The notes beneath the pieces were generated by a model. That model worked only from the letters and a program-made list of their open reading frames with translations, was not told the DNA's origin and ran no database searches. A stretch of 64,000 bases of DNA from positions 10,058 to 74,057 of the IMG/VR virus record IMGVR_UViG_3300044852_000047, one strand, 5' to 3'. Made by a program: the position numbers and the translations under genes. Below, piece after piece: positions 51,529-52,074 of this stretch. Every line of letters starts with the position of its first letter. Position 1 is the stretch's first letter. This stretch comes from a virus. Taxonomy: Duplodnaviria; Caudoviricetes.

Positions 51529-52074
51529 TTATTGCAGGGTGGGGGCTTCAGCCGCAGCGGTTTCCTTGGCACGTTGCCCGAACAGGGCAATGCGCTGGGA
51601 CAGCACCAGGCCGTACTTGGTCATGAAGTCCAGCTGATTGAGCAACAGCTCTTTCTCTTCGTCCGGCAGGGCCATGGCCGTGTCAGTCTCAAGGAAGGCT
51701 TGCAGCTTCTCGGACTTGGCGAACAGTTGGTTGTGTTCGATGAACACCCGCACTTCGTGCTCGGGCAGCGCTTGTTGGGCTGGAGTCAGCTGGTTAAAGC
51801 CGGCGTCCAGTTCCTTGCGCAGCGCGTAGCCTTCCAGTTCCCACAGCTTGTCTTCGGCCTTGGGCAGGCAGGCATTCAGCGCGTACTTGCTGCCTTCTTC
51901 AGCATTGAAGTTGGCGGGCGAGACGCAGGCGCTGTGCCCGGTGGCCAAGTAAAAACCATCGAGGTAGGCATGGGCGAAGGTGCTGGTGCTGTCACCGTCA
52001 CGGCTTACCTGGAACGACAGGCGCTCCATCAGTGTCTGGATCTGTTCCGGTTTGATGCGGGGTGCTTGCGACAT
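51529..52074 (-). CDS. Tad1-like (gp49/66 family) sponge domain fused to a crAss001_48-like helical domain
   Basis: GHSACVSPANFN..G...KLWELEGY; C-terminal RVFIEHNQL..KLQAFL...LLLNQLDFMTKYGLVLSQRIALF. Confidence 0.85.
   Translation of the reverse strand: MSQAPRIKPEQIQTLMERLSFQVSRDGDSTSTFAHAYLDGFYLATGHSACVSPANFNAEEGSKYALNACLPKAEDKLWELEGYALRKELDAGFNQLTPAQQALPEHEVRVFIEHNQLFAKSEKLQAFLETDTAMALPDEEKELLLNQLDFMTKYGLVLSQRIALFGQRAKETAAAEAPTLQ

Follow-up and report, generated by a model that had tools for sequence, protein, structure and literature searches.

We examined a two-domain protein encoded in a 64,000-nucleotide stretch of virus DNA (hereafter, the window). The sequence-only reading of this DNA saw a Tad1 sponge, fused to an uncharacterised helical domain that might found a new sponge family. 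We find that the two halves are an Acb4 domain and a Sequestin domain, both from families already published. The features of the locus are listed in Table 1. The open reading frame itself is real. It runs on the minus strand from 52074 to 51529, encodes 181 amino acids, and has a strong Shine-Dalgarno sequence. Conversely, a database gene call of 166 residues (P0002) starts at M16. That start was ruled out by the AAGGAG element and by residues P5 and I12, which lie upstream of M16 and are at least 90% conserved in the homologue alignment. Since AAGGAG is 7 nucleotides upstream of the ATG, and P5 and I12 are conserved, we favour the 181-residue start at 52074; the database call is probably too short. 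Note that the gp58-like open reading frame, which is read in a different frame, enters the fusion gene by 77 nucleotides (51998-52074). Ab09 gp58 lacks an equivalent of the last 23 residues of this reading frame, and the M16 start chosen in the database shortens the overlap.

Table 1. Coordinates, in the window, of the fusion gene, its domains, neighbouring genes and the separate Tad2 gene.
Feature	Position	Strand	Basis or remark
Tad2 sponge gene, separate	23875..24342	-	Tad2 is residues 80-153; an unnamed domain of 77 aa precedes it
Unnamed N-terminal 77-aa domain of Tad2 protein	24115-24342	-	Motif GYLVEY...GYLSWSPKAQFDNAY
Virion RNA polymerase ORF, 3,496 aa	35960-46450	+	
Homologue of N-terminal part of Ab09 gp61 (Bes2)	49475..50047	-	42% over 59 aa, E 3e-10
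RuvC-like, Ab09 gp60 (Bes1) homologue	50060..50623	-	47% to ORF60, E 2e-54; phrog_159
298-aa protein	50623-51519	-	N-terminal signal-peptide-like segment; between acb4-sequestin and Bes1-like gene
acb4-sequestin fusion gene (product P0001)	51529..52074, including stop codon	-	ORF and translation, 181 aa; two Pfam domains
Sequestin domain (PF21825, 'crAss001_48')	51586..51765	-	Residues 104-163; two-helix hairpin
Acb4 domain (PF13876, Phage_gp49_66)	51811..52044	-	Residues 11-88; modelled core reaches about residue 91
Ab09 gp58 homologue	51998..52405	-	BLASTP to ORF58, 29%, E 2e-13; phrog_6026
Shine-Dalgarno AAGGAG	52082..52087	-	7 nt upstream of ATG at 52074; read from sequence
N4 gp45-like single-strand DNA-binding protein (counterpart of Ab09 gp57)	52461..53186	-	phrog_743, E 2e-70
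DUF3987/PriCT primase-like protein	54521-56662	-	

When all 74,057 bp of the virus record were searched in six frames, PF13876 and PF21825 turned up once each, both in this gene. Its GC content is 59.5%, compared with 56.8% for the window, and base composition gives no sign of a recent foreign origin. An AlphaFold2 (AF2) model of the protein has a mean pLDDT of 94.

The N-terminal half is an Acb4 domain. Pfam assigned PF13876 with 49.0 bits, where the curated cut-off is 27 (E 8.6e-13), and the six-frame search gave 49.9 bits. PF13876 is the Acb4 family, founded by Acb4 of Bacillus phage SPO1 (PDB 9E4W; bioRxiv 10.1101/2024.12.30.630793). In the model, this domain consists of a helix (residues 9-17), three strands (19-25, 31-38 and 41-49) and a long helix (58-91), all with pLDDT above 90. 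The resulting alpha-beta-beta-beta-alpha core is dsRBD-like, as in SPO1 Acb4, for which a likeness to dsRBDs was reported by Chang et al. (bioRxiv 10.1101/2024.12.30.630793). Foldseek, run against the PDB, placed 9E4W chains at ranks 1 to 10 (probability 1.00, 21-23% identity, E 3e-3 to 7e-3), with target-normalised TM scores of 0.49-0.59. Folds of the dsRBD type ranked below them. Similarly, a profile built from 32 fused homologues had 9E4W as its sole match in the PDB (E 0.0073). A single-sequence phmmer search of the PDB returned nothing at E<=10. Two strings in this half had been taken for Tad1 motifs. Both are present, GHSACVSPANF at residues 46-56 and KLWELEGY at 76-83. Seven residues are invariant in the 32 homologues (G46, S48, N55, L77, W78, G82 and Y83) and, judged from the alignment, the supposed Tad1 motifs are the conserved core of PF13876.

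The C-terminal half is a Sequestin domain. Here, the sequence-only reading had described a helical domain widespread in phages. That description holds: the pattern RV..E...L..KL.AF...Q...M..Y..VL..RI..F occupies residues 109-165, and AF2 folds the region as a two-helix hairpin (residues 105-128 and 138-176). Pfam assigned PF21825 with 55.5 bits, where the curated cut-off is 24.8 (E 5.4e-15); the six-frame search gave 57.3 bits. A full-text literature search with the domain name 'crAss001_48' found no paper. The link was made via the Pfam accession: PF21825 was named Sequestin by Tal et al., who described it as a sponge for the Thoeris signal 3'cADPR (bioRxiv 10.1101/2025.07.12.664507). We took the SequestinB sequence from Table S1 of that study. 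It aligns to residues 103-165 of the fusion protein, ungapped, with 33% identity (BLASTP, E 6e-10). SequestinB residues R7, E11, Q45 and R59, equivalent to R8, E12, Q47 and R61 of SequestinA, fall gap-free on R109, E113, Q147 and R161. Mutational work by the same authors found that E12, Q47 and R61 of SequestinA (E11, Q45 and R59 of SequestinB) are required for activity (bioRxiv 10.1101/2025.07.12.664507). Among the 31 fused homologues that align over this domain, R109 and E113 are kept in all, and Q147 and R161 in 30 each.

The earlier idea that fusion to a known sponge suggests a partner able to neutralise an immune signal was sound, and is already in print for PF21825. Sequestin was itself found by guilt-by-fusion, as one of the unknown Pfam families most often fused to Tad2 or Acb4; in Pfam, PF21825 is fused to Tad2 in 60 cases and to Acb4 in 91. 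Binding and release of 3'cADPR were shown directly, and 10 of the 13 members tested inhibited type I Thoeris (bioRxiv 10.1101/2025.07.12.664507). A 2026 review counts seven characterised sponge families, with Acb4 and Sequestin among them.

Taken with the published homologues, from which we infer ligand binding and anti-defence activity, the protein is very probably a two-domain nucleotide-signal sponge that blunts CBASS and type I Thoeris. A linker of about 15 residues connects an N-terminal Acb4 domain with a Sequestin domain at the C-terminus. Judged by its homologues, a tetrameric pinwheel would be formed by the Acb4 domains. Pockets between the Acb4 protomers would then sequester cyclic dinucleotides of CBASS, namely 3'3'-cGAMP and probably cAA-type molecules, as in other Acb4s of Gram-negative phages. 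The Sequestin hairpins would form dimers, with two interface pockets to trap 3'cADPR (1''-3' gcADPR), the signal of type I Thoeris. As an early or middle protein of an N4-like phage, such a sponge would counter both defences at once. For Acb4, the precedent is the SPO1 protein, a tetrameric anti-CBASS sponge for 3'3'-cGAMP. That ligand was bound by all eight diverse Acb4 homologues tested, and the Acb4s of Gram-negative phages also bind cAA (bioRxiv 10.1101/2024.12.30.630793).

A first alternative keeps the same folds and changes the ligands. For example, the Acb4 pocket might have moved away from cGAMP, towards cAA-type or other molecules, or the Sequestin pocket might hold another ADPR-derived signal. 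To compare pockets, we mapped the SPO1 Acb4 ligand contacts K36, F48, E49, V56, Y57, F62, N63, I66, T70 and K81 onto the fusion protein. Note that the mapping comes from a weak HMM alignment (E 0.0073), in which K81 cannot be placed. In this weak alignment, F48, F62 and N63 correspond to Y42, F56 and N57. Conversely, K36 and E49, which read the guanine, correspond to T30 and L43. Elsewhere, V56 and Y57 become C50 and V51, and I66 and T70 become E60 and Y64. By this weak alignment, the aromatic and backbone contacts are kept and the base-specific ones are not. Since T30 and L43 replace K36 and E49, affinity for cGAMP may be low, or specificity different. Acb4s of Gram-negative phages also have a broader range, and gp59 of phage Ab09, which has the same two domains, has a very high affinity for 1'',3'-gcADPR and a lower one for 3'3'-cGAMP, and binds 2'3'-cAA as well (bioRxiv 10.64898/2026.06.04.730250). 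Against these points, the homologues that all bound 3'3'-cGAMP did so despite sequence divergence, and published cGAMP-binding Acb4s are equally divergent at the contact residues (bioRxiv 10.1101/2024.12.30.630793). For the other domain, none of 13 Sequestins inhibited type II Thoeris, CBASS or Pycsar (bioRxiv 10.1101/2025.07.12.664507). The residue mapping, with its E value of 0.0073, is a further reason for caution. We consider a ligand spectrum unlike that of the characterised members unlikely, though it is the strongest of the alternatives. A narrower version concerns the clade with a long linker between the domains. Because K36 and E49 are lost, with T30 and L43 almost always present in the fused homologues, a signal set uncharted for Acb4 is possible, such as cAA-type signals or the Panoptes-type 2'3'-cAA in preference to cGAMP. 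This we offer tentatively, as a doubtful option. If true, the protein would be a dual sponge that differs in its tuning from Ab09 gp59 and does not merely duplicate it.

To return to the dual CBASS and Thoeris sponge, its assembly was addressed by modelling the protein as a homotetramer. Models of oligomers, with attention to pockets between subunits, were among the checks proposed by the sequence-only reading. The homotetramer passed its controls: ipSAE was 0.85 in each of three runs, while the best control scored 0.00. Contact agreement between runs was at least 94% and partner pLDDT at least 89. In calibration, 20 of 30 proteins solved as homo-pairs and 1 of 23 solved as single chains came up to the mark used for complexes; these counts apply only roughly to this protein, because a custom alignment was used, with four copies instead of two. 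Each protomer is predicted to contact three others. Residues 22-51 pair as a beta-sheet with a second protomer, the loop at 50-55 packs against helix 68-89 with a third, and helix 79-90, together with Sequestin helix residues 139-164 (including Q147 and R161), meets a fourth. In the model, residues 139-164 of two copies touch, and the Sequestin hairpins pair between protomers. The published Acb4 tetramer is a pinwheel with beta-sandwich and 'joint' interfaces (bioRxiv 10.1101/2024.12.30.630793), and the Sequestin domain of Ab09 is a dimer, with a solved crystal structure (bioRxiv 10.64898/2026.06.04.730250). The modelled interfaces fit both, and support the same arrangement here. Note that, because 9E4W is already solved, the result may partly reflect likeness to that structure, or memory of it by the model. 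The tetramer model thus backs assembly, but is no demonstration of it.

These contacts bear on a second alternative, in which the C-terminal hairpin binds no ligand and is only a tail that oligomerises or stabilises the Acb4 tetramer. Pairing of hairpins between protomers, as modelled, would add interface, and 3 of the 13 PF21825 proteins tested did not inhibit Thoeris (bioRxiv 10.1101/2025.07.12.664507). Conservation of R109, E113, Q147 and R161, both here and in the fused homologues, argues against a mere tail; three of these four positions correspond to those at which mutation removed the activity of SequestinA and SequestinB. Furthermore, Acb4 tetramerises without any tail (bioRxiv 10.1101/2024.12.30.630793; 10.64898/2026.06.04.730250), and the homologous fusion protein of Ab09 binds gcADPR tightly. 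We regard a tail without ligand as very unlikely.

The third alternative, a hexameric Tad1 sponge fused to the founder of a new sponge family, is so improbable that it can be set aside: the two strings and the phage-wide C-terminal domain that prompted it are present, but no Tad1 chain appeared at E<=10 in the PDB searches (phmmer or the 32-sequence profile) or among the Foldseek matches listed, where Acb4 9E4W was found instead, Acb4 has no structural homology to Tad1 according to Chang et al. (bioRxiv 10.1101/2024.12.30.630793), and the partner was published as Sequestin in 2025 and met again in 2026 (bioRxiv 10.1101/2025.07.12.664507; 10.64898/2026.06.04.730250). Hence, the Tad1 label is wrong; without a match in sequence, profile or fold, Tad1 identity was ruled out.

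The surroundings of the gene were compared with those of phage Ab09. By its sequence, the virus record belongs to an N4-like phage, which also encodes an AAA_24/Sak4-like protein and an N4 gp45-like single-strand DNA-binding protein (SSB). In tblastn, the latter is 43-48% identical to SSBs of N4-like phages. The locus is flanked by the primase-like gene and the gene for the virion RNA polymerase. The window and Ab09 share a gene order of SSB, gp58-like, Acb4-Sequestin, Bes1-like RuvC and Bes2-like, and over both domains the fusion protein and Ab09 gp59 share 27% identity (E 3e-16). In Ab09, gp57 is the SSB, gp59 is Acb4-Sequestin, and gp60 and gp61 are, respectively, the RuvC-like Bes1 ('broad evasion of signaling 1') and Bes2. 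In the Migulavirinae preprint, this locus is termed a hot spot for anti-signalling that N4-like phages have in common (bioRxiv 10.64898/2026.06.04.730250). Bes1 and Bes2 of Ab09 permit evasion of type II Thoeris by a mechanism that is not a sponge. Deletion of gp59 alone did not sensitise Ab09 (bioRxiv 10.64898/2026.06.04.730250). Hence, the contribution of gp59 may be redundant.

Other genes are found in the same region. The 298-aa protein encoded next to the fusion gene has weak matches of the TAXI/NMT1 type, below threshold (PF16868 with 21 bits, where the cut-off is 27; PDB 1us4 with E 0.43). It is most closely related to proteins from unrelated Pseudomonas phages (64% for Lana, 43% for the jumbo phage Noxifer) and from some 290 records of Vibrio phages. 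Its gene resembles a mobile accessory gene. The part of the hot spot that separates the virion RNA polymerase from Bes2 also encodes a DUF3268 zinc-finger protein (46732-47319, minus strand, E 4.5e-20) and several small open reading frames without family. From 48372 to 49192, the list of open reading frames contains only short ones on the plus strand, of 80-104 residues.

Next, consider how widely the domain pair occurs. Among the best 120 database relatives of the fusion protein, 37 carry both domains. Matches that cover at least 80% of the query were obtained in 67 records of the phage collection, many of them from N4-like phages of Stenotrophomonas, Pseudomonas, Achromobacter, Rhizobium, Sinorhizobium and Acinetobacter. 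One database relative (P0017) has a Sequestin-like hairpin on the N-terminal side of its Acb4 domain. Hence, both domain orders exist in nature. Megablast of positions 50000-54000 against the phage collection recovered no near relative, and only a 153-nucleotide match (78%) to Xanthomonas virus PB119. The phage thus has no close cultured relative in that collection. Best matches at the protein level indicate that the host is probably Pseudomonas.

The sequence-only reading had counted up to four sponge domains in this phage, including those of a Tad2 fusion. Three are recognised: Acb4, Sequestin and Tad2. The Tad2 domain, encoded by a separate gene, was identified as PF11195 (E 1.7e-18), was also found by the six-frame search, and matches the PDB Tad2 structures 9eib, 8v3e and 8sme with E values of 1e-8 to 1e-10. 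The fourth, the 77-aa domain that precedes Tad2 in the same protein, is a candidate only. Pfam has no family for it. In PHROG profiles, this domain also precedes Acb4 (phrog_9467), Sequestin (phrog_32732) and Tad2 (phrog_872), and it occurs in stand-alone viral proteins of 67-93 residues. Because it is recurrently fused to three different sponge families, it is a candidate sponge or sponge accessory.

We conclude that the fusion protein is a divergent member, with 27% identity to the characterised Ab09 gp59, of a published anti-defence fusion. The family, the fusion, its oligomeric state, its ligands and the genomic hot spot have all been described, and conceptually nothing new is added. What emerges is an uncultivated N4-like phage with a standard anti-signalling toolkit, in which Acb4-Sequestin sits beside Bes1- and Bes2-like genes and Tad2 is encoded elsewhere. 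A phage with such sponges is expected to trigger decoy systems of the Panoptes type. The analysis also amounts to an independent re-derivation, from sequence, of the guilt-by-fusion logic behind Sequestin. Its practical value lies in a corrected annotation (Acb4, not Tad1), and in a divergent member for comparative work on ligand specificity.

Our final comparison is with the known systems. Ab09 gp59 (vB_PaeP_C2-10_Ab09 ORF59, CDN96872.1), also from an N4-like phage, has the same two domains, in the same order and genomic position. Full-length gp59 is a tetramer by SEC-MALS, and its Acb4 domain alone is tetrameric too (bioRxiv 10.64898/2026.06.04.730250); for the protein described here, the tetramer is predicted. 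The latter is also longer, with 181 residues rather than 147, a longer linker between domains (residues ~88-104) and a 16-residue C-terminal tail. The window has an extra gene, for the 298-aa, putatively secreted and weakly TAXI-like protein, between the fusion and Bes1, where Ab09 has none. Overlap of the upstream gene with the fusion gene is 77 nucleotides in the window and 4 in Ab09. SPO1 Acb4, about 22% identical, shares the alpha-beta-beta-beta-alpha core and is the best PDB match by fold and by profile. However, a single long helix (58-91) stands where SPO1 Acb4 has alpha4-alpha5, and the SPO1 protein lacks the extra fused domain. Members of the Sequestin family (SequestinA, SequestinB and T4 Y16O) are helical hairpins of about 60 residues, as here, and SequestinB has its ligand residues at identical spacing (R-x3-E ... 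Q-x13-R). Sequestins are mostly stand-alone proteins of 60-80 residues, whereas this one is the C-terminal half of a fusion. Tad1 (for example, PDB 8SMD and 8KBH) is alike in principle: it is a small phage protein that forms oligomers and soaks up gcADPR and cyclic oligonucleotides. However, Tad1 has no detectable relationship in sequence or fold and is a hexamer, a trimer of dimers in which six pockets are peripheral and two central, whereas the state predicted for the protein described here is the tetramer of its Acb4 relatives.
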